From a virus (taxonomy: Duplodnaviria; Heunggongvirae; Uroviricota; Caudoviricetes): a stretch of 41,073 bases of DNA. Position numbers and translations under genes: made by a program. The notes beneath the pieces are model-generated. The model worked only from the letters and a program-made list of their open reading frames with translations. It did no database searches and had not been told where the DNA came from. Of the stretch, positions 1,851 to 41,073 are shown in pieces. The stretch is from IMG/VR virus record IMGVR_UViG_2537561979_000009, positions 1-41,073 of that record. One strand, written 5' to 3'. Numbering within the stretch: the first letter of the stretch is position 1; each line of letters begins with the position of its first letter.

Positions 1851-4800
1851 TACAGTCTCCCCAGTCGTACTCTTAACACATTGTTATCGTCATATACGTC
1901 GATTCGCTCGCCATTGAAAAACAGGCGGCCTGCGCCGGGCCTTCCTGAGTTAATTTCAAGGCTGCCGTTTCTTGATAAACGCCACCCCGGACTACCGGAA
2001 TGAAAATTATCTGACCGGATATCTCCCGTCACTCTGGCAAAATCCACGGTCAGTTTTTTCATGAAAACATCATTCATGAACAGCTGATCACCCTGAGCCA
2101 CAAACAAAGGTGTTGTATTGCCATTTTCCGGGTTAATCATCGCAATACGATCTGCCTGCATCAGGATCTGACTCTGAATTCCGTCAGACGTATTTTCGAT
2201 TCCGGCACCAATACCTGCAATATAGAGACGTCCATCCCGTGTCTGCTGCAGCTTCACAGCCCACATGCTGTTCAGGTTCCGGCGCGTGTCCTCCTGAACT
2301 TTCTGTATCTGCTCAATGCTGGCATTCCAGGATCCCAGTTTTTTATCCGTGCTCTGTTTGATCTGACTTCCCTTATCATCAACATACTGTCTGATCTGCG
2401 CTATCTGTCGGCTGTTCTCCTCCGTGCTCCTGCTTACTGTCTGCCGGATTTCGCTTCCCATCCTGTCAACTTTTCTGTCAACTTCCGCAATGGCCATTGA
2501 CTGTTCAGCGCTCTTTTTCGCCACAACAGTACTTATTTGCGCACTTTTATCATCAACATACTGCCTGACCTGCGCTATCTGTCGGCTGTTCTCCTCCGTG
2601 CTCCTGCTCACTGTCTGCCGGATTTCACTGCTCACGCTGTCAACTTTCCTGTCGACTTTCGCAATGGCCAGCGACTGTTCACCGCTCTTTTTCGCCACCA
2701 GTTCCGTTATGCTGTTTTCAGACGCCGTGATTTTTTTCGTCACCCCGGCGATATCACGCTCCGCACGCTGCCTCACATCTTTCTCCAGCTGCGTCATTTC
2801 GCGGTTAATCTCATTCTCCAGTTGCTCAACTTCAGTGCGCCGTGCAGAGGCATCAATGCGTTCATTGATCTCCCGTCCCAGATGCGTTTTATTTATCGCC
2901 CCCCTGAAAAAATTAAGGTAAGCGGCAGGATCATTACTCGGTTGACCGACTGCCTCCACGAATGCCGATTTACCGACAGTGTTAACACTGCGGATATAAA
3001 AGTAATAATCATGACCAGGCTTAATATTCTGGCCGGAGACAAGCCACTGAGTTCCGGTACCAAGATAACGGGCTGTGGTTTCAACCTGCCTGATATCGGT
3101 AATCCGCTTTTCCGAAAACCAGAACTCAAACTGTACCGTCGGATCATAAACGGCAAGATGCGGCGTGGCGGTTATCTGAAAATAGCCCGGCGTCAGCTCA
3201 ATCCGCGACGGCGCTGCCGGTGCGGCAATCCGGAACGATACCGACGCCGGGTCTCCCTGCTGCCCCCGGGCATTTACTGCCCGGACTGTCAGCCTGTAGT
3301 TCCCCGGTGCCAGCTGCCTGAAGCGGTATGTGGTTTCCGTCGTCCGGGCCGTGCTGACCAGCCGCTCACTGCCGTCATCCGCTGCCACGGTCAGGCGAAG
3401 CATGAAACTCACGCCTTTCACCACCTTCGGCGTGTCCCAGCGGGCCAGTACCTGATACTCCCCGCTGTCTGCGGTGACTTCGACAGTCAGGTGCTGCACT
3501 GCTGGCGGCGTGACACCATTCACCGTGCCGCTCTGGTCACCGTCAAAGTGTGCCCCGTTATCCACGATGCCCTCTTTTTCCGGTACATGCTGCACGGCAG
3601 TGATGGCATACGTGCCGTCGTCGTTCTCACGGATACTCACGCAGCGGAACAGGCGCTGGCGCAGCGTCGGCAGCTTCAGCCCCCACACGCTGTACTCGGC
3701 AACGCCGTCAGGAACCCGGCTCACTTTTACCTTCACGCCGTCGGTGACGGACTGAACCTCCACGCTGACCGGATTGCCACTTCCGTCAACCAGACTTATC
3801 AGCGTGGTACCGGAGGATGGCAGCGTGATTTCACGGTCGAGCGTCAGCGTCCGGGTCTGGCTGTTCACCGCCAGCACACGACCACCGGTGCTGATACCGG
3901 CATAGTCATCATCACAGATTTCAATGACATCGCCCGGTACATGGCGAAGCCCTTCAGCACCCACGCTGAAATCCACGGTCTGCGTCTCCAGCAGTTCTGT
4001 TTTAATCAGCCACAGCCCGGCGCGGTGTGCCTGCCCCCGGCTGGTACAGCCAAAGGCATCCATCTTCGTGACGTTACGACCGTAACGGGCAATGGCCTGC
4101 GTGTCCTCCACAAGCTCTGTCGCCGTCTCCTGGCCGTTATCCGGGTCACTCCAGTTCACCTCAACGGCATTATGGCGGTCCTTCAGGGCGCTGAAGCTGT
4201 AGCGGAACGGCGCGCCATCATCCGGCATCACCACATTACTGCGGTTATAGGTCCACACCTTATCCGACGGCCGGTCCTGCACGAACGTCAGCGTCTGCCC
4301 GTTCCATACCGGCATACAGCGCATCGCCGAGCAGAAATCACTGAGCACATCCCACGCCTTGCGCTGTGTGGTCAGCCAGGCATTACAGGTGATGCGCGGC
4401 TCCGTGCCACCAGAGCCGTCCGGCACCGACTGGTCGCAGTACTGGCCGATAACATACAGCGCCCATTTGTCCACATCCGCTGCGCCAACACGTTTCCCCA
4501 TGCCGTAGCGCGGGTGGGTCAGCATATCCCACAGACACCAGGCCGGGTTATCGCTGTATGCCGGTTTAAACGTTCCGTCCCAGATACCGCTGTATTGCCG
4601 CGTCTGCGGGTTATAGTTCGACGGCACCTGCAGAATGCGCCCGCGAAAATGATAATTACGGCTCACCTGCTGGCTGCCGAACTGCTCCGAATCCACCTGC
4701 ACACCGACCAGTGCCGTGTTCGGGTAGCACTGTTTCACATCGATGATTTCGGTGTATGACGACCAGAGCGTTTTGTTCTGCAGCTGGTCTGTGGTGCTGT

Positions 4801-5359
4801 CCGGCGTCATCCTGCGCATCCGGATACTGAACGGGCGCGGAGGCAGGTTACCCACCACCACCGAGGCCAGATACTGCGAGGTGGTTTTGCCCTTAATGGT
4901 GATGTCTTTTTCCGTCACCCAGCCACCGTTACGCTGTATCTGAACCAGCAGGCGGACTTCCGACGGATTCCGGTCCCCCTTTGAGGTGGTTTCCACCAGT
5001 GCCTGCACACCGAAGGTCAGGCGCAGACGGTCGATGTTTGCCGACGTGATGGTCCGGGTAATCGGCGTGTCGTACTTCACTTCCGTACCCAGCACCGTCT
5101 CGGAGCCGGAGGATTCAAATCCCTCCGGCGGCGTCTGCTCCTGCTCACCTGACCGGAACACCACCGTGACGCCGGATATATTGGTATTCCCCTCACTGTC
5201 CAGCACCGGCGTACCGTTCAGCAGCACGCTTTTTAATCCATCCACCGGTCCTTGTATCGGCCCTTCGCTGATGACATCGATCACACTCAGCAACTGCGTG
5301 GACTTCAGGTTGTCCTTCGCTTCGCGCGGGGTATGCCCCTTACTGCTGCCTTTACCCAT
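1850..5359 (-). CDS. J: Tail tip host specificity protein J, 1169 aa, with a non-lambda C-terminal region
   Basis: N-terminus [24 protein letters not shown] and most of the length match lambda J as I recall it; the last ~300 aa diverge and contain an internal duplication. Confidence 0.93.
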
Positions 5360-31799: not shown

Positions 31800-32959
31800 T
31801 TGCGCCCCCTTACCTCTGAAGGGTTCAGCGACAAATTTATGAGGCAGGCCAGTGCCGAAGCATCATTAATATAGTCATATAAGCTAACAGCCAGCGGAGA
31901 TTCGGCTTTTGCCAACATAGGATAAAGCTGCTGCAGCCAGACCTGATGAATTGATGAAATGTAGGAACAGAGAACGCTGGCGTTATGTGCAACGTCGCTC
32001 GGTACAGCGGGCTTTGAAAGCTGTTTCTCCATCTGGTTAAAGGCATTGATGTATGCCTCTTTGAACTGGGCAGCACGTTTCCCCGTGAAACCCATAGCAA
32101 GAAACGCAAAGCCGTCGCGGGTTATTTGATAGCAAGGAAGTTTGCGAGTACCGCCGTTGGGCTGGCGTACCAAAATTGATGTCTCCGCAAAATTGCGGGC
32201 ACAAAACTCTGGAGAACAATCCAAAATGCGGATCTTTTTCAGAACATCGTCATGACGTTTAGAGAAGAAGTCAGCAACAGCCAAAGAAGATGTAACAGCC
32301 TGACCATCAACGATGGCAATTTCAGGTTGAGAGAGGGTTGGGAGAGTAGTCATGGTGACAGCCCCGGTAGTCAGTTTTTTAGAAAACTCACCACATGGGA
32401 CGCCAATCACAGAGGTGGTGAGACGTACAGGGTTGGCGTTACCGGAGACTACCGAACCCGGCCCGACCGAAGTCGGCCCTGTACGCCCCACCATAATTTG
32501 GGCGTAGCAATGCTCATGACACGAAAAAACCGCATGAGCGCGGTTATGCTCAGTAATCAATTTCAGGACGCCAATCCCGGCACCCGTTTTATAAGGTGCC
32601 TGAACAGTGTAACGTCCCGGAATGGCAGAATCAATGTGCTGGTGGTCCTTCACACTCAACAAAATCACGCCTGAATTTCCACAAAGGACTAAAGCACTCA
32701 TGCGGGTAGTCTTTGCGAAAATAGATAACGCGCTGTGTTTCTGGTTCCCAACGAATAACATGAACATAAAGTCCTCTTCCGTCACGAAACCAGCGGTTAA
32801 GTTCCTGCACAACTCGCCCCCCACAGTCAGGTAAAGTTCTCTGTGGTTACTTACAGCCAGGTGATTTGGTAATCTGCATTCATGCCGTAACAACAGGTGT
32901 TCAGCCACGCGGACCACCAGCTGTTGCGACCAACGGTTATTTGCCGTTAAACTGTTCAT
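31796..32959 (-). CDS. Rha family phage regulatory protein; Rha domain in the C-terminal 185 aa, N-terminal 202 codons of uncertain reality
   Basis: MTTLPTLSQPEIAIVDGQAVTSSLAVADFFSKRHDDVLKKIRILDCSPEFCARNF...MGFTG matches the Phage_pRha pattern and begins at an internal Met near 32353; the ORF stays open to 32959. Confidence 0.6.
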   Translation of the reverse strand: MNSLTANNRWSQQLVVRVAEHLLLRHECRLPNHLAVSNHRELYLTVGGELCRNLTAGFVTEEDFMFMLFVGNQKHSALSIFAKTTRMSALVLCGNSGVILLSVKDHQHIDSAIPGRYTVQAPYKTGAGIGVLKLITEHNRAHAVFSCHEHCYAQIMVGRTGPTSVGPGSVVSGNANPVRLTTSVIGVPCGEFSKKLTTGAVTMTTLPTLSQPEIAIVDGQAVTSSLAVADFFSKRHDDVLKKIRILDCSPEFCARNFAETSILVRQPNGGTRKLPCYQITRDGFAFLAMGFTGKRAAQFKEAYINAFNQMEKQLSKPAVPSDVAHNASVLCSYISSIHQVWLQQLYPMLAKAESPLAVSLYDYINDASALACLINLSLNPSEVRGRK

Positions 32960-33507
32960 GCGTTAGTTTCTCCACAGACACAAAACGCCACGACGCCCGG
33001 AGCTGCACACTCGCGGGCGTCACTCTTTTCTGGAACGCAGAAAATTTTGTAGACCAGTGCCGCATGTTCCTGGAGCTTCGAAATCGACAGATACAACTCA
33101 TCATTAATTGCTGTCTGCTCATGTGGCTCCACTACCCCGTCTTCGATTGCCGAACGAATCTGCTTTGAGTAACTCCCGATCTGTTCAATAACTTCCAGTA
33201 GACGTTGGTTGATATCAGCGTTCTCTACTTCCTCAATTTCTGGAAGTGATACAAACACCCCACCAGCAGACTGTGCGACAGCATCCGCAATGTAGTGAGT
33301 GCCAGCAGCACGCTGTAAAATCATTGCCCATCCCAGCGGGAAAATCTGATCGCCATCTGCACGAAGGCGGTTGAATAAAGCGTTCTCTGTTACATCCAGC
33401 CACTCAGCAGCTTCAGCGTAGCCCCCCGGCAACGCCGCGATAGTTTTTCTGACAGCTTTCACGTACCACTCAGGCTGTTTTTCCACTTTCCAGTGATGAT
33501 TACCCAC
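32956..33507 (-). CDS. Putative CII-like regulatory protein, 183 aa, GTG start
   Basis: Second gene of the rightward operon after cro; start overlaps cro stop; family guessed by position. Confidence 0.35.
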   Translation of the reverse strand: MGNHHWKVEKQPEWYVKAVRKTIAALPGGYAEAAEWLDVTENALFNRLRADGDQIFPLGWAMILQRAAGTHYIADAVAQSAGGVFVSLPEIEEVENADINQRLLEVIEQIGSYSKQIRSAIEDGVVEPHEQTAINDELYLSISKLQEHAALVYKIFCVPEKSDARECAAPGVVAFCVCGETNA

Positions 33508-33760: not shown

Positions 33761-33857
33761 ATGACCTCCACATATTGCGTGATGAGCATATTATTTCACG
33801 CAAATATTTTGCGCAAGTTGATTTGCTTAACGCGCAATAAAGAAATGTAATAAACGC
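33761..33857. promoter_or_regulatory. OR region: divergent cI/cro promoters with operator-like dyads (TTGC-N7-GCAA class)
   Basis: TTGCTTAACGCGCAA at about 33823-33837, palindromic TTGCGCAA at about 33809-33816, inverted TTGCGTGA...TCACGCAA. Confidence 0.55.
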
Positions 33858-34550
33858 ATGAACATAGGAAACCGAGTCAGACAACTTCGCCAGGCGAAGA
33901 ACATGAAAATCGCCGATCTCGCTGAAGCAATAGGAGTGGATGCGGCGAATATCTCACGCCTGGAAACAGGTAAGCAGAAACAATTCACTGAACAAGCCCT
34001 GAGTAATATTGCCAGGAGCTTAGGTGTTGATATTGCTGATCTCTTTACCTCAGACTTCAAAAGTAATACTGTATGTAAAAACAGTATTAGTGAGGATGTT
34101 GCGCAGGTGAAGGATGTATTCCGTATTGAAATGCTGGATGTCAGTGCCAGTGCGGGAAATGGCCTTATCCAGGGCGGTGATGTCATTGATGTGATTCATG
34201 CCATTGAATACAGAACTGATAATGCTGTATCGATGTTTGGCGGACGGCCAGCCAATCACATTAAAGTTATCAACGTTCGTGGGGACAGTATGTGTCCAAC
34301 CATTGAACCAGGAGATCTCATCTTCGTTGATGTCAGTATCAATCAGTTTGATGGAGATGGTATCTATGTATTTGGTTTTGATGATAAAATTTATGTCAAA
34401 CGACTGCAAATGATACCTGACAAACTACTGGTGATTTCTGATAACCAGATTTACCGTGAATGGGGAATTACCAGCGAAAATGAACACCGGTTTATGGTCT
34501 TTGGAAAGGTCTTAATCAGCCAGTCACAAACCCTTAAGCGACACAATTAA
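33858..34550 (+). CDS. cI: CI repressor: N-terminal HTH plus C-terminal S24 (LexA-like) autoproteolytic domain
   Basis: 230 aa; HTH (MKIADLAEAIGVDAANISRLETGKQ), C-terminal GDSM serine and KR lysine motifs. Confidence 0.85.
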   Translation: MNIGNRVRQLRQAKNMKIADLAEAIGVDAANISRLETGKQKQFTEQALSNIARSLGVDIADLFTSDFKSNTVCKNSISEDVAQVKDVFRIEMLDVSASAGNGLIQGGDVIDVIHAIEYRTDNAVSMFGGRPANHIKVINVRGDSMCPTIEPGDLIFVDVSINQFDGDGIYVFGFDDKIYVKRLQMIPDKLLVISDNQIYREWGITSENEHRFMVFGKVLISQSQTLKRHN

Positions 34551-34570
34551 CCCTTACCTCCTCATCAATT

Positions 34571-34595
34571 AGCCACCCGAAGGTGGCTTTTCATT
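34571..34595 (+). terminator. Terminator candidate after cI (AGCCACC-CGAA-GGTGGCT then TTTTCATT)
   Basis: 7-bp perfect stem with tetraloop, 20 nt after the cI stop; short U-tract. Confidence 0.5.
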
Positions 34596-34605
34596 ACCCA
34601 TTAAA

Positions 34606-34658
34606 TTGCATATCTCGCAACAAAAACACTTGCACAATGCGCAACTTCATTTTATCTT
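34606..34658 (+). promoter_or_regulatory. OL/pL candidate: two 15-bp operator-like sites with possible -35 TTGCAC and -10 TATCTT
   Basis: TTGCATATCTCGCAA at about 34606-34620 and TTGCACAATGCGCAA at about 34630-34644, same TTGC-N7-GCAA pattern as OR, 24 bp apart. Confidence 0.45.
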
Positions 34659-35070
34659 TCTTTCCAGACCAACAAACAAGGTACTAACAAAATTTGGTTG
34701 TAACACGGCGTATGGCACATGCGTCGTTAGCGGTCTGGGGACGTTAAAGGGGACAATCCACTCCTTGCTCGGGCAAACAAACCAGGTAACCGGAATGTGC
34801 AAGTCAATGATGATGCTGATAAGACGCCTAACCAGCGTGGCGATTCGGTTTGACGCCTGGGAAGAGACCAGGGTGCAACGATGAGGGCATTTATGGAACC
34901 GCGACAAAGTGTGGTGCCGTAACTGGCTAAGTGCTCTCAGCGTTGTGGTAATCCGCGAAATGGCGCGGCGGTAAGTATAGCGGGGTTACTCTTTCCCCGT
35001 TGAGGACACCGGATTGTCAGGTTGACCATACGCCTGAGTGACAACCCCACCACAACAGCCACTGCTTTGG

Positions 35071-35202
35071 CGGTACCAGTTTGTACCCTTGCTTCCGGCT
35101 GGTACCGTCCTTTTTACAAAACAGAGAAGAGCATCACCGGACGACGGGCTCATAACCCAATCCACCCGGGCGGCTGCCACCGCAGGTGTTCTTCTCTGTT
35201 TT
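35071..35202 (+). ncRNA. Structured RNA element in the early-left leader (nested long stems); function unknown
   Basis: CGGTACCAG...CTGGTACCG (9 bp, about 35071-35107) then TCCTTTTT; AAAACAGAGAAGA (35118-35130) pairs with TCTTCTCTGTTTT (35190-35202) around GC-rich internal hairpins. Confidence 0.4.
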
Positions 35203-35252
35203 GTGGAGAAACCAACCGGCCTTGCAGGGTCGATATGATGAGGAGCAGCAAA

Positions 35253-35615
35253 ATGGCTAGCGAACGCAGTACTGATGTGCAGGCATTTATCGGGGAGCTG
35301 GACGGCGGCGTATTTGAAGCCAAATACGGCGCAGTTCTCAGTGAAGTCGCTTCCGGTGCGATGAACACGAAGAACAAAGGTAAGGTCTCGCTCAACCTGG
35401 AAATCGAACCATTTGATGAGAACCGTGTGAAAATCAAACATAAACTCTCATATGTTCGCCCGACTAACCGCGGGAAAATTTCCGAAGAAGACACCACCGA
35501 AACGCTGATGTATGTCAATCGCGGTGGTCGCCTGACTATTCTGCAGGAAGACCAGGGACAATTACTGACTCTTGCCGGTGAACCTGACGGAAAACTTCGC
35601 GCAGCAGGTCATTAA
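35253..35615 (+). CDS. Early-left accessory protein, 120 aa (YfdP-like by size and position)
   Basis: GAGGAG Shine-Dalgarno 8 nt before ATG at 35253; upstream part of the 197-aa ORF is rejected as leader. Confidence 0.5.
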   Translation: MASERSTDVQAFIGELDGGVFEAKYGAVLSEVASGAMNTKNKGKVSLNLEIEPFDENRVKIKHKLSYVRPTNRGKISEEDTTETLMYVNRGGRLTILQEDQGQLLTLAGEPDGKLRAAGH

Positions 35616-35681
35616 TATCGTTCTTAATTAACCGATTATTTATCTCATCACTGAATTATCTTTATATAGTGAGGACTTATT

Positions 35682-36506
35682 ATGTCTCAGAACTTAGACG
35701 CAACCGCAATTGATCAAATCCATGCCCTTATTTCTGCTCAGGGGGTTAATGAAATTATCAGTAAGATTGGTGCCGATGCTGTGGCATTGCCTGAGAATTT
35801 CCGCATTCATGATCTGGAAAAATTTAATTTAAATCGCTTCCGTTTCCGTGGTGCGCTTTCCACTGCCAGCATCGATGACTTTACCCGTTATTCTAAAGAT
35901 CTTGCAGATGAAGGCACCCGCTGCTTTATCGATGCCGATAATATGCGAGCCGTCAGTGTGCTTAACCTGGGTACTATTGATGAACCAGGTCACGCAGATA
36001 ACACCGCCACTCTCAAACTGAAAAAGACAGCACCGTTCTCTGCCCTGTTGTCTGTTAACGGCGAGCGTAACTCCCAGAAATCACTGGCAGAATGGATTGA
36101 AGACTGGGCCGACTACCTTGTGGGCTTTGATGCTAATGGTGACGCCATTCAGGCAACAAAAGCTGCTGCGGCAGTCCGTAAAATCACGATTGAAGCAAAC
36201 CAGACCGCTGATTTTGAAGATAATGACTTCAGCGGTAAACGCTCCCTGATGGAATCTGTCGAAGCGAAGACCAAAGACATTATGCCAGTGGCATTTGAAT
36301 TTAAATGCGTTCCGTTTGAAGGTCTGAAAGAACGTCCGTTTAAATTACGCCTCAGCATTATCACTGGCGATCGTCCTGTACTGGTTCTGCGCATTATTCA
36401 GCTGGAAGCGGTGCAGGAAGATATGGCTAACGAATTTCGTGATCTGCTTGTTGAGAAATTCAAAGACAGCAAAGTAGAAACCTTTATTGGTACTTTCACC
36501 GCCTGA
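35682..36506 (+). CDS. Early-left accessory protein, 274 aa (YfdQ-like, DUF2303-type)
   Basis: Length and position match the CPS-53 yfdQ arrangement as I recall it; unverified. Confidence 0.5.
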
Positions 36507-36634
36507 TTTCATTACTGCAAATGCCCCTTCGGGGGCATTTATGGAAACGTAATTAACTCAATAATCGCCGGATGGTGAGGGCTTCCTTTTACCCGAATTC
36601 AGCGCGGTGCAGCGCATATAACGTGGAGAACAAA

Positions 36635-37171
36635 ATGTCATTTATTAAAACTTTTTCCGGGAAGCATTTTTATTATGACAGGATAAATAAAGACAACATC
36701 GATATTAACGATATCGCGGTTTCCCTTTCAAATATCTGTCGCTTTGCCGGTCATCTTTCACACTTCTACAGCGTCGCCCAACATGCGGTGCTTTGCAGCC
36801 AGCTGGTGCCGCAGGAATTTGCTTTTGAAGCGTTAATGCATGATGCAACAGAAGCGTATTGCCAGGACATCCCCGCGCCACTGAAACGCCTTCTTCCTGA
36901 CTATAAACGGATGGAAGAAAAAATAGACGCCGTAATCCGTGAGAAATACGGGTTACCTCCTGTTATGAGCACGCCAGTGAAATATGCCGATCTCATTATG
37001 CTGGCAACCGAACGCCGCGATCTCGGACTTGATGATGGCTCTTTCTGGCCTGTATTGGAAGGTATCCCGGCAACAGAGATGTTCAAAGTTATTCCACTGT
37101 CGCCAGGTCATGCCTACGGGATGTTTATGGAACGTTTTAACGAGTTATCGGAGTTACGCAAATGCGCATGA
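36635..37171 (+). CDS. HD-domain phosphohydrolase (YfdR-like 5'-deoxynucleotidase family)
   Basis: H...HD motif region (FAGHLSHFYSVAQHAV...LMHDATEAY); start at MSFIKTF with GGAGAA Shine-Dalgarno rather than the ORF start at 36572. Confidence 0.6.
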   Translation: MSFIKTFSGKHFYYDRINKDNIDINDIAVSLSNICRFAGHLSHFYSVAQHAVLCSQLVPQEFAFEALMHDATEAYCQDIPAPLKRLLPDYKRMEEKIDAVIREKYGLPPVMSTPVKYADLIMLATERRDLGLDDGSFWPVLEGIPATEMFKVIPLSPGHAYGMFMERFNELSELRKCA

Positions 37172-37524
37172 ATGTTTTCGAAATGGAAGGGTTTCTTCGC
37201 GGGAAATGTGTACCGCGAGATCTGAAAGTGAACGAAACAAATGCTGAGTACCTGGTACGTAAATTCGACGCGCTTGAAGCTAAATGTGCGGCACTGGAAA
37301 ACAAAATAATACCAGTGTCAGCTGAATTGCCACCTGCAAATGAAAGTGTTCTGTTATTTGATGCTAACGGAGAAGGCTGGCTGATTGGCTGGCGTTCTCT
37401 CTGGTACACCTGGGGACAAAAGGAAACCGGAGAATGGCAGTGGACATTTCAGGTCGGGGATCTTGAAAACGTCAATATCACTCACTGGGCAGTAATACCA
37501 AAGGCACCGGAGGCAGGGGCATAA
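37162..37524 (+). CDS. Hypothetical early-left protein, 120 aa
   Basis: Coupled to flanking genes by overlapping stop/start codons. Confidence 0.45.
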   Translation: MRMNVFEMEGFLRGKCVPRDLKVNETNAEYLVRKFDALEAKCAALENKIIPVSAELPPANESVLLFDANGEGWLIGWRSLWYTWGQKETGEWQWTFQVGDLENVNITHWAVIPKAPEAGA

Positions 37525-38144
37525 TGACCACATTTACCGACAAAGAACTGATTAAAGAAATCAAAGAGCGCATAGGCAGTCTGGATGTGCGAGACAATAT
37601 TGAGCGCCGTGCTTATGAAATTGCTTTGGTATCGCTGGAAGCAGAACCGGTGGCATGGCTGCATTCAGACAATGGCTTAGGTATTCCGGCAATAACACGG
37701 AGTAAAAACATTGCTGACAGCTGGTTATCAAAGGGCTGGTATGTTCAGCCGCTATATATAGCCAAGCCAGTGCCGGTGGTGCCAGATGTTCGTCCATCTT
37801 TAAATAATGGCATAGTCGGTTTTGATGAAGGCTGGAACGCCTGCCGCGCCGCCATGCTTCATAGTGCCGAACCTGTAAGCCAGACTTACAAGTTGAACGA
37901 GCTGTCGGGCAACTCTCCGGTAACTCCGGATGGTTGGATAAGCTGTAGTGAGCGAATGCCGAACGATAAACAGTATGTTTGGTGTTGGGGGAAGTCTTAC
38001 GGCTGGACTGAGTGCGATACCTTCGAAGGGTATTACGATTGGTCGAGAAACAAATGGTGGGCAATTACTGACGATGGGGAAAAACCGGCATCGAAAGTAA
38101 CCCACTGGATGCCGCTACCGGAACCGCCGCAGGAGGTGAAGTAA
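37524..38144 (+). CDS. DUF551-like protein, 206 aa
   Basis: C-terminal WISCSERMP...KVTHWMPLPEPP resembles DUF551. Confidence 0.45.
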   Translation: MTTFTDKELIKEIKERIGSLDVRDNIERRAYEIALVSLEAEPVAWLHSDNGLGIPAITRSKNIADSWLSKGWYVQPLYIAKPVPVVPDVRPSLNNGIVGFDEGWNACRAAMLHSAEPVSQTYKLNELSGNSPVTPDGWISCSERMPNDKQYVWCWGKSYGWTECDTFEGYYDWSRNKWWAITDDGEKPASKVTHWMPLPEPPQEVK

Positions 38145-38338
38145 TGAACAACTTAATGACAACAAAACAAGTCGCCGAATTCTGTGGCGTTTCAGTATCG
38201 ACGGTGCTTCGCTGGAACAGCGTAAACAGGAGAACTGGCCAGAAATACAGGCCTGATTTTCCAGATCCTGATATCAAATCCTGCCCAAATAAATGGGCAT
38301 CACGCAAAATATACAGATTTGCTGGAGTTATTGAGTAA
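38144..38338 (+). CDS. xis: Excisionase (AlpA/Xis-type HTH)
   Basis: 64 aa, MTTKQVAEFCGVSVSTVLRW HTH; last gene of the early-left operon, near int. Confidence 0.65.
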   Translation: MNNLMTTKQVAEFCGVSVSTVLRWNSVNRRTGQKYRPDFPDPDIKSCPNKWASRKIYRFAGVIE

Positions 38339-38716
38339 TGAGAGTTAGCCAAGAGGTGAGATAGTATCCATCTATGGCACAGAACTAAACATAATCTGAC
38401 TATATGCTCTGTGCCAAAAACAGATGTTATATCATGTATTGTATGCTCATCCTGCAAAATATAAATTCCGCAGATACCCCTTACCTCTGAATATTAATCC
38501 ACAATGGATGCGACAAAAAAGATTTTGAGTTGGTATCAAGCGAAATATTAATAATTATAATACCCCATACACAATGCCATCTGAGTCATCATATCCTGGT
38601 CTCTATCAATATTTATCTTGCCATCAGAAAAATCCAACACAAAGAAATGATGAAATTTCGGCGGAACAACTTTAGAGTAAAAGCAGAAATACTCATTATT
38701 CCTTTCATATTGAAAA

Positions 38717-39679
38717 TTAACGTATATTTTTTAATTTTTTATTTTCCACCAGGTCCATAAACATTTTATTTAAATCTGACCTTTTACTTTCCTTGTCATC
38801 ATCTTGAAGCTTAGGATCAAAGTAACGTATTAAGCAGTTTTCAATAATTCTCCCCTCATTATCAACATCAATTTCATCCAGTAGAGAATTTGAAATATTA
38901 AAGACCACATTACATTTATTATTCAGCGATATAATCCTTGGATTAAATATACTAAAACAAACAAAAAAATCATTATCGTCATTTGAAACGCTATACAGCA
39001 TCTTTGATAAGCCACGGTGAATAAAATCAACAGGGCGCCGATGCGGATGACGTGTATATCCTACGTAATGCACTTCTGTATGAATTCCTAAATCAATATA
39101 ATGTCCGTTTACGAAGTCATGAACTGACATCACACATAAATTGCCATTTTCATATTCAATGTAGAGAAACTTCTCAGTTACTCTAACATTTGGAGTTACC
39201 TTCACTACCCCATTCTGCGTAAACGTGCAAAAGGAATATTTTATCCGAAGCTTTCGCTCTTCTTTGCCAATCAACAGAGTGAATACTATATTTTTTGTGA
39301 ATGGGTTATACCTAGGCTGTTTCTTGGTTGAAAACCTTACTTTTTTTCTTGAACCTAAGAAATAAATAAATCTCTTTTCACAGCTTTCCCTCGTATATTT
39401 TTCCATAATTCTGAGATAGTTCTTTATTATCTTATTTGTTCTTATATCATCAGGAGGATTAATTATCATATCATACCAAATACAATCGGTGTTAATGAGA
39501 TCAATCCACAATGACTTATCGGCTTCTGAGAAAACCACGTTAGAGTTTATAAAATCAAAGTTTCCGCGAGTCATAAAACACTTCATCACATTAAAAATCA
39601 CCTGCACATAATAAATTAAGTAGCAGAAGGTTCGCAAACCCTTGCTTCTGTTTGTGCTATGATATTTTTCATAATTCAT
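38717..39679 (-). CDS. Hypothetical protein, 320 aa, AT-rich moron between xis and int
   Basis: Markedly lower GC than the flanking phage DNA, rich in Asn/Lys/Ile/Phe; no recognisable motif. Confidence 0.6.
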   Translation of the reverse strand: MNYEKYHSTNRSKGLRTFCYLIYYVQVIFNVMKCFMTRGNFDFINSNVVFSEADKSLWIDLINTDCIWYDMIINPPDDIRTNKIIKNYLRIMEKYTRESCEKRFIYFLGSRKKVRFSTKKQPRYNPFTKNIVFTLLIGKEERKLRIKYSFCTFTQNGVVKVTPNVRVTEKFLYIEYENGNLCVMSVHDFVNGHYIDLGIHTEVHYVGYTRHPHRRPVDFIHRGLSKMLYSVSNDDNDFFVCFSIFNPRIISLNNKCNVVFNISNSLLDEIDVDNEGRIIENCLIRYFDPKLQDDDKESKRSDLNKMFMDLVENKKLKNIR

Positions 39680-39837: not shown

Positions 39838-41073
39838 CTACGCAAACTGTCCGTTGGAGATTAAGTCAGTACAAGTAACGATCGATTCAACCCTCTCCCA
39901 CCATGCCCAGTAAGCTTTACGCTGTTCTTCTAGATAATCGCTCTTATCATAAACTTGCCATACACCTGGCAGTTTATGACCGAGCATTATTTCAGCAATA
40001 TGAGGAGCAGTAAGATCAGAAAAGTTTGTTCGTGCTGTTCGTCTCAAATCATGAAGAGACCAATGAGGAAATTGATACCCCAAACGTCGCCATGCGAACT
40101 GCATTAAATTGTAAGGCAGCGACTGCAATGATGTCCGACCAACTGGCTCCCTGCTTCCTTCCTTAGTAAAAAGCATATCGGAACCGTTGTTCATAGAGAT
40201 AACGTATTTTATAAGCTCTTCAACCGGTTCAATAATGGGCCGCTTTAGCGGTTCGCCTGTTATGTCCCCAGTCTTATGTCGTTCTGGTGGTACAGTCCAT
40301 ACCTTATTTATGAAATCAAAATCATCCACCCTAGCAGTAATTAGCTCTGAACTACGGCAACCAAAATGCAGCAATAGTTTAATGAAGGCTCGGTATTTAG
40401 GAACCATTCGAGAACCATCGATCGCAGCATAAAGGATGTTAATTTCATCATGTGTCAGAAACCGTTTTTTCTGACCTTTACGGATATCCATATCTTTACC
40501 CGTGATATCCGACAGTGGGCGAGTTTCAATGAGCTTTCTCTTATACGCCCAGACATGGGCCTGCTTTGCGTTAATTAGCAATCGGTCTACTATTGCTGGA
40601 GTCTTGGTGCTAAGAGGCTCCAGGACTTCTAACCAATCATGCAATGTAGCTGCATCGTGAGGGATATTCCCGATTTTAGAGAACAGGTGCAGCTCAAACG
40701 AGCGGAGTATCTGTTCAGAACCTTTTTTATTTTTTACACAATATGCTTCATACCAGGCACGGATCACAGACTCTACCGTCATGGCTTCAGTAGCTTTTCG
40801 TTTTTCAGCCTGCTTGACTAATCGTGGATTGCGGTTTGACTCGAGTTCACCACGGAGACGGATAACTTCTTCTCTGGCCTCTTTTAATCCAGTTGCCGGG
40901 TAAGTTCCGATATCAAGGCGCTCACCTTTCCCTGCCCATTGATAACGATATTGGAACACTACGCGACCTTTCGGTGATACTCTGACAGACAGACCATCAC
41001 GATCGGATTTAACCAAAACCTTATCACGTTCCTTTCCAACGACTGAACGCAACCACGCATCAGACAGCGCCAT
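39838..41073 (-). CDS. int: Tyrosine integrase, P4-type with DUF4102-like N-terminus
   Basis: 411 aa; N-terminal ...LSVRVSPKGRVVFQYRYQWAGK arm-binding-like region and C-terminal R...HDLRRT...LGH...Y catalytic motifs; ATG occupies the last three bases of the window. Confidence 0.85.
   Translation of the reverse strand: MALSDAWLRSVVGKERDKVLVKSDRDGLSVRVSPKGRVVFQYRYQWAGKGERLDIGTYPATGLKEAREEVIRLRGELESNRNPRLVKQAEKRKATEAMTVESVIRAWYEAYCVKNKKGSEQILRSFELHLFSKIGNIPHDAATLHDWLEVLEPLSTKTPAIVDRLLINAKQAHVWAYKRKLIETRPLSDITGKDMDIRKGQKKRFLTHDEINILYAAIDGSRMVPKYRAFIKLLLHFGCRSSELITARVDDFDFINKVWTVPPERHKTGDITGEPLKRPIIEPVEELIKYVISMNNGSDMLFTKEGSREPVGRTSLQSLPYNLMQFAWRRLGYQFPHWSLHDLRRTARTNFSDLTAPHIAEIMLGHKLPGVWQVYDKSDYLEEQRKAYWAWWERVESIVTCTDLISNGQFA

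Follow-up and report, generated by a model that had tools for sequence, protein, structure and literature searches.

A yfdPQRST-type early-left module in an apparently intact lambdoid prophage and a conserved structured RNA in its leader

The virus record IMGVR_UViG_2537561979_000009 (Caudoviricetes) comprises 41,073 nucleotides (nt), referred to here as the window, and its plus (+) strand carries five open reading frames (ORFs) between 35253 and 38144, followed by a sixth at 38144-38338. The five are recognisable as the yfdPQRST module, which is already known because its orthologues in Escherichia coli K-12 have been named and partly characterised in published work, and which here resides in an apparently intact prophage. 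The genes are preceded by a long leader containing, at 34699-34948, a conserved element for which covariation strongly supports a structured, pseudoknotted RNA. The gene order reads cI, leader, yfdPQRS-DUF551 and xis, and the arrangement of the module after cI is shared by phages that have been induced and sequenced, for example PhiR47_1. The genes are the following:

35253-35615, + strand: yfdP orthologue, 120 amino acids (aa); PHROG family phrog_204, E 2.8e-47
35682-36506, + strand: yfdQ orthologue (DUF2303), 274 aa; 99% identical to K-12 YfdQ
36635-37171, + strand: yfdR orthologue, HD-domain phosphohydrolase, 178 aa; phrog_318, E 2e-111
37162-37524, + strand: yfdS orthologue, 120 aa; 99% identical to K-12 YfdS; phrog_583, E 5e-82
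37524-38144, + strand: gene 5, a yfdT-like/DUF551 fusion, 206 aa
38144-38338, + strand: xis, excisionase-like protein with a helix-turn-helix (HTH), 64 aa; phrog_1553 (excisionase), E 1.3e-35

The first-pass annotation had assigned these products to YfdP, YfdQ/DUF2303, an HD-domain YfdR and DUF551, assignments which proved right by Pfam, PHROG and alignment with the K-12 proteins, and its early-left placement holds equally, the genes lying on the same strand, downstream of a cI-type repressor gene and upstream of xis. The profile searches that it had proposed gave a mixed outcome. The yfdQ product scores 308.7 bits for DUF2303 (PF10065; cut-off 26.6), residues 7-272 covering positions 2-269 of the 269 in the profile, and the C-terminal part of gene 5 (residues 137-203) scores 63.8 bits for DUF551 (PF04448; cut-off 22). 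The yfdS product, on the other hand, falls slightly short of the latter cut-off at 20.7 bits, and the YfbR-like HD model stays below its threshold, as detailed further below. DUF551 is a portable domain that is also found in an Ea22 variant (PMC10834534); in gene 5 it follows a YfdT-like N-terminus (residues 1-42) that is 88% identical to K-12 YfdT. The yfdP product shares 95% aa identity with K-12 YfdP and drew no match in Pfam or NCBIfam, and none of the five operon proteins matched the defence-system models of PADLOC. An AlphaFold model of YfdQ (predicted local distance difference test score 76.8) gave no informative fold match in the PDB, and a full-text literature search on DUF2303 returned no functional study. 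Reading yfdR from 36635 follows the RefSeq style, the longest ORF beginning at 36572, and the resulting protein is identical to K-12 YfdR (b2361) at 172 of 178 residues (97%), free of gaps. Scores of the xis-like product for HTH_17 and the excisionase domain are weak and under the cut-offs. In RefSeq the five genes are labelled yfdP, YfdQ family protein, yfdR 5'-deoxynucleotidase, hypothetical protein and DUF551 protein.

The HD site of YfdR is fully preserved. Throughout an alignment of 24 family members, reaching down to 65% identity, R36, H50, H69, D70, E73, D78 and D119 are invariant, and the H...HD...D ligands that define HD metal-dependent phosphohydrolases are in place. The first-pass annotation, which had pointed to the HD motifs, had named a lack of catalytic residues on alignment as its refutation; all catalytic and metal-binding residues are kept, and that refutation therefore fails. 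The nearest solved structure is Atu1052 (PDB 2gz4), which the family profile matches over residues 4-175 (E 2.7e-17) including the VAQH and KxAD motifs, and with which H50 and D119 of YfdR align. By direct alignment, PDB profile search and profile-profile comparison, H69, D70, E73 and D78 correspond to H68, D69, E72 and D77 of YfbR. Hence E. coli YfbR (PDB 2paq), Atu1052 and YfdR are members of a common HD-domain fold family with the motif H..HD..E....D.P.P.K. The overall identity between YfdR and YfbR is 21%, however, the profile match is confined to a stretch of about 40 residues that includes the HD motif (E 0.09), and YfdR scores below both curated cut-offs for YfbR, with 24.0 against 25.9 bits for PF12917 and 19.6 against 122 for the NCBIfam equivalog model NF003009. 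Because of this low identity and these scores, YfdR is by sequence a relative of YfbR and not its equivalog.

At the gene junctions, the idea that five translationally coupled genes precede xis stands for the last three only: yfdR and yfdS overlap by 10 nt, and yfdS/gene 5 as well as gene 5/xis each share a TAATG. The first two gaps, by contrast, amount to 66 nt (yfdP-yfdQ) and 128 nt (yfdQ-yfdR), and the coupling claim is thus overstated. The larger spacer holds one further element:

36520-36541, + strand: GC-rich hairpin AAATGCCCC-TTCG-GGGGCATTT, recognised from the sequence

This hairpin could act as an internal attenuator or influence RNA stability. As for distribution, 4041 of the 5426 complete E. 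coli genomes searched, or about three quarters, carry a match to the DNA at 35000-38400, and in 469 of these at least 80% of it is covered, the top identity being 98.4%.

Between the end of cI (33858-34550), whose product combines HTH and Peptidase_S24 domains, and the start of yfdP lie 702 nt devoid of a credible ORF, and an N-like gene is likewise absent from this interval. The leader is a mosaic of conserved non-coding segments, each common to different phages, and comprises the following features:

34571-34588, + strand: terminator-like hairpin AGCCACC-CGAA-GGTGGCT followed by TTTC, directly after cI, from a terminator scan and the sequence
34606-34620 and 34630-34644, + strand: putative OL operators TTGCATATCTCGCAA and TTGCACAATGCGCAA, respectively
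34630-34635 and 34653-34658, + strand: candidate pL promoter, putative -35 TTGCAC and -10 TATCTT, overlapping the operator sites
34699-34948, + strand: conserved pseudoknotted structured leader RNA, about 200-250 nt, from a covariance model and covariation
34953-35048, + strand: non-coding segment about 74% identical to phage P1 68739-68832 (blastn)
35069-35115, + strand: hairpin of 13 base pairs (bp; 35069-35109) followed by U5 (35111-35115), intrinsic-terminator-like, between the leader RNA and yfdP, from folding
35111-35209, + strand: long hairpin with an uninterrupted 25-bp stem just 5' of yfdP, from folding

The TTGC-N7-GCAA pattern of the candidate operators recurs at 33775 and 33823, between cI and cro; its count over the whole window does not exceed chance, so the operator reading rests on clustering and position. 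The P1 segment matched at 34953-35048 overlaps the start of an annotated 'dicF-like region' (68791-68892) in the leader of the ban operon, and the DicF model of Rfam gave no match there in the window. Further downstream, the fold of 35055-35225 has a z-score of -4.9, and the 5' arm of the 35111-35209 hairpin contains the U-run of the preceding 13-bp hairpin. The latter (35069-35115) could be a terminator and the former an RNase III-type processing site ahead of yfdP.

The leader RNA lies outside the five-gene stretch that the first-pass annotation had described. The covariance model matches it at 34699-34899 with 150.9 bits, in a single copy within the window, and its parts are:

34706-34711 with 34721-34726, + strand: helix P1
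34731-34737 with 34783-34792, + strand: helix P2, enclosing a variable hairpin
34792-34803, + strand: invariant GGAAUGUGCAAG
34803-34805 with 34839-34841, + strand: helix P3a
34824-34827 with 34835-34838, + strand: helix P3b
34830-34833 (AACC) with 34847-34850 (GGUU), + strand: pseudoknot
34856-34860 with 34868-34872, + strand: helix P4
34930-34948, + strand: 3' motif AGUGCUCUCAGCGUUGUGG

These assignments derive from an alignment of 40 distinct sequences, in which helices with compensatory changes were taken from RNAalifold and then set into a hand-written model of seven helices including the pseudoknot. Over the 29 base pairs of the model, 98.6% of the cells can pair, as compared to 29-45% after a shift of the 3' partners by one to three columns, and 12 of the 29 pairs show compensatory changes on both sides. 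Not one of 500 shuffles matched the observed percentage paired, the number of compensatory pairs or cells, or the covariation score. The pseudoknot illustrates this well: the loop CACC pairs with a downstream GGUG, and both have changed jointly to AACC and GGUU in the lineage of the window. Accordant with these figures, covariation lends strong support to the element being a structured RNA.

Other explanations of the conservation were considered and discarded. A small protein starting from the invariant ATG in GGAATGTGCAAG was rejected, as the corresponding ORF ranges from 6 to 96 aa and its frame differs among the homologues; the conservation is therefore not protein-coding. ARAGORN finds no tRNA in the leader. 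No family of Rfam 15 covers the RNA at gathering thresholds, a search of 34551-35260 giving only noise up to E 10, and a literature search with its invariant motifs returned irrelevant matches only.

The leader RNA is widely distributed, its homologues sharing 72-88% identity. It occurs in 1831 of the 5426 complete E. coli genomes, or about one third, including 554 places on plasmids, with P1-like plasmids among those listed, and no annotated feature covers it in any of these 1831 genomes. A pattern built from two motifs retrieves at least 119 IMG/VR contigs, and its exact form was found in 23 contigs of species-representative genomes, all from Enterobacterales bar one short contig of a metagenome-assembled genome. 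Shiga-toxin phages also carry the RNA, while the K-12 prophages e14 and CPS-53 have no copy of it. With respect to genomic context, several settings recur. Among 30 distinct same-strand ORFs ending at most 300 nt upstream of the RNA, 21-22 encode HTH and Peptidase_S24 repressors; the groups of these repressors are only about 23% identical to one another, and most of the genes stop some 110-165 nt short of the RNA. In mEp390 and a Klebsiella phage, the homologue follows the repressor gene. In phage P1 the homologue (71010-71194) stands directly after trnI and ahead of ban, and likewise in D6; across 18 P1-like loci, tRNA-Ile(CAU), labelled tRNA-Met by ARAGORN, lies 10-11 nt upstream. Directly before a tRNA-Arg gene, the RNA is found in phiV10, SPN1S, BUCT711 and Tyrion, and in 27 loci tRNA-Arg follows the conserved core at a distance of about 50-114 nt.

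Two observations on the element may be added. One IMG/VR contig (L030) bears two copies, at 3988-4158 and 4783-4962 (-), separated by about 800 nt and equally oriented. In addition, a motif resembling AGTGCKCTYnnnGKTGTG occurs just 5' of the RNA and 5' of the adjacent tRNA in Uetakevirus-type loci (L008, around 560-600 and 800-826), and also ends the window element (34930-34948); it may mark the boundary of a cassette or serve as a signal for processing.

Elsewhere in the window, the early-right region contains, downstream of a ymfL-like gene (32956-33507), two Rfam matches above the gathering score, namely C4 antisense RNA at 32411-32498 (-) with 82.3 bits and the Hfq-binding RNA isrK at 32523-32599 (-) with 60.1 bits; at the matching place in a closely related E. 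coli prophage, a gene for a Rha-family regulator follows. Between xis and int lies a low-GC gene, frameshifted in the window near 38723-38730, whose family is small (48 clusters) and has neither Pfam nor PDB sequence matches, and whose structure model bears only weak similarity to GIY-YIG nucleases. The integrase gene (39838-41073, -) and xis lie on opposite strands, int being transcribed towards xis, and the window ends exactly at the start codon of int. The closely related prophage is integrated next to yjjG and rimI.

Regarding function, the operon is probably a lambdoid early-left (pL-side) accessory module of the CPS-53/SfV type, in which YfdR and its partners damp initiation of the host chromosome after induction. 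Loss of the repressor would open the promoter immediately downstream of cI, the transcript would run through the structured leader RNA and the two hairpins, and the module would then be expressed. YfdR together with its partners would subsequently damp host chromosome initiation during phage replication, while YfdR probably keeps a weak 5'-(deoxy)nucleotidase activity, too. The experimental basis comes from K-12, where YfdR binds domain I of DnaA via Phe46 and competes moderately with DiaA and DnaB (PMC4776307). Moreover, extra copies of yfdQ-yfdR in combination with yfdS or yfdT inhibit initiation at oriC in the wild type and suppress over-initiation mutants (PMC4776307). YfdR was further described as structurally homologous to YfbR and far weaker in its affinity for nucleotides (PMC4776307), and Noguchi and Katayama (2016) suggest, by analogy to the P protein of lambda, that the module once aided growth of the ancestral phage (PMC4776307). 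Because YfdQ, YfdR and YfdS of the window are 97-99% identical to the K-12 proteins tested, binding of DnaA by YfdR and joint inhibition of oriC initiation may be extended to them, and in our reading DnaA-directed damping constitutes the best-supported activity of the module. From multicopy genetics in K-12 to a role during lytic growth of the window phage is nevertheless a leap that we infer.

Several points weigh against this proposal. The DnaA effect was seen with multicopy expression only, its authors conceding a possible artefact, and deletion of yfdQRST entailed no replication phenotype (PMC4776307); the evidence is thus one of K-12 genetics and not of phage infection or induction. Furthermore, the perfect conservation of the HD residues suggests that an enzymatic activity is under selection, for which the DnaA model offers no explanation, and the promoter, the operators and the transcript structure in the window are all predicted from the sequence.

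That conservation of every metal-binding and catalytic residue also speaks for YfdR acting mainly as a 5'-deoxynucleotidase, which would reshape the host pools of deoxynucleoside mono- and triphosphates in early lytic growth while its neighbours are unrelated accessory genes. The matching PHROG families are labelled deoxyribonucleoside 5'-monophosphate phosphatase, the RefSeq gene name is that of a 5'-deoxynucleotidase, and one paper cites K-12 yfdR among genes reported to have phosphatase activity on cytidine monophosphate (CMP; PMC10870394). Yet deletion of yfdR left the CMP yield of the engineered strain unraised, unlike that of three other genes (PMC10870394), the scores of YfdR lie under the curated cut-offs of the YfbR family, and genetics ties the function of yfdR to yfdQ and to yfdS or yfdT (PMC4776307). 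As the main role of YfdR this is unlikely, although a nucleotidase activity is in itself compatible with the DnaA model. The related suggestion of the first-pass annotation, that such genes manipulate host nucleotide pools or defences, is not favoured either, given that the published K-12 evidence points to DnaA, that PADLOC found nothing and that the YfbR cut-offs are missed. It is finally quite improbable that the module benefits the lysogen, with low-level expression from the prophage raising tolerance to oxidative and alkylation stress: K-12 mutants lacking yfdQ or yfdS were reported to be more sensitive to H2O2 and those lacking yfdQ to methyl methanesulfonate (Wang 2010 and Rooney 2009, as cited in PMC4776307) and the module is extremely common among E. 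coli, but the reported effects are weak, these phenotypes stem from a decayed prophage without an immunity region, and in the window a cI-type repressor, a terminator-like hairpin and a long leader all precede the genes, which argues for silence in the lysogen.

As to the leader, it is tentatively proposed that it encodes an undescribed class of structured RNA, built from at least four helices plus a pseudoknot over about 200-250 nt, that may act either in cis, by put-like processive antitermination or anti-pausing, by processing or by stability, or in trans. Ranked first, it may be a cis element of the pL transcript serving antitermination, anti-pausing or processing; ranked second, it may be a stable RNA that is freed by tRNA-processing enzymes and acts in trans; and ranked third, it may be a mobile non-coding cassette serving another purpose. 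Our leading guess is that it targets the early-left transcript, through antitermination or processing. A crude terminator finder reported terminators downstream of the RNA at 53 of 108 loci (49%) as compared to 136 of 332 control windows (41%), no clear enrichment, so that antitermination is left without general support.

With regard to what follows from this, the operon itself adds nothing new, being a further copy of a named and partly characterised gene set. The part that could matter is the leader RNA, which, if indeed undescribed, would be an abundant and strongly conserved RNA. Since no N-like gene lies between cI and yfdP, it would offer a testable handle on how early-left terminators are read through in lambdoid phages that lack N.

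Among known systems, the closest counterpart of the module is the cryptic K-12 prophage CPS-53 (KpLE1), whose genes yfdP-yfdQ-yfdR-yfdS-yfdT-(ypdJ)-torI agree with the window in order and strand, an excisionase-type gene closing the module in both. The two differ in that K-12 YfdT comprises 101 aa without DUF551, only its first 42 residues being common to the 206-aa product of gene 5, and in that the xis-like gene of the window is distinct from torI. CPS-53 has, moreover, lost the repressor and the leader, and upstream of yfdP only 19 nt match the window. The functional temperate Shigella phages SfV and SfIV, in turn, carry the module in their early-left region, orf29-31 of SfV having been named as YfdQRST homologues (PMC4776307), and the 185 nt directly 5' of yfdP (35068-35252) are 97-98% identical in both. 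Their matches start at 35068, and those listed therefore miss the segment of the structured leader RNA.

For the leader RNA, the comparison of choice is put. Membership in the put family was rejected, as both the covariance model and nhmmer miss HK022 putL and the putL-like RNA of HK639. While put spans about 70 nt and two stems, the leader RNA extends over about 200-250 nt, includes a pseudoknot in addition to at least four helices, is present in the window without a second, putR-like site, and occurs, unlike put, also beside tRNA genes, in phage P1 and in Uetakeviruses, outside early operons. There are likenesses nonetheless. Both RNAs contain ACGGCG...CAUGCGUCG, where put has CGGCAAUG against CCGGAAUG in the window; in the published structure of put, function depends critically on the U of CAUG and on an A of AAUG (PMC9378689). 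In the window, the terminator-like hairpin at 35069-35115 follows the leader RNA. Finally, HK022 putL and the leader RNA share the same place, each coming first after the repressor gene on the early-left side, which is exactly where lambdoid phages put their antitermination signals.

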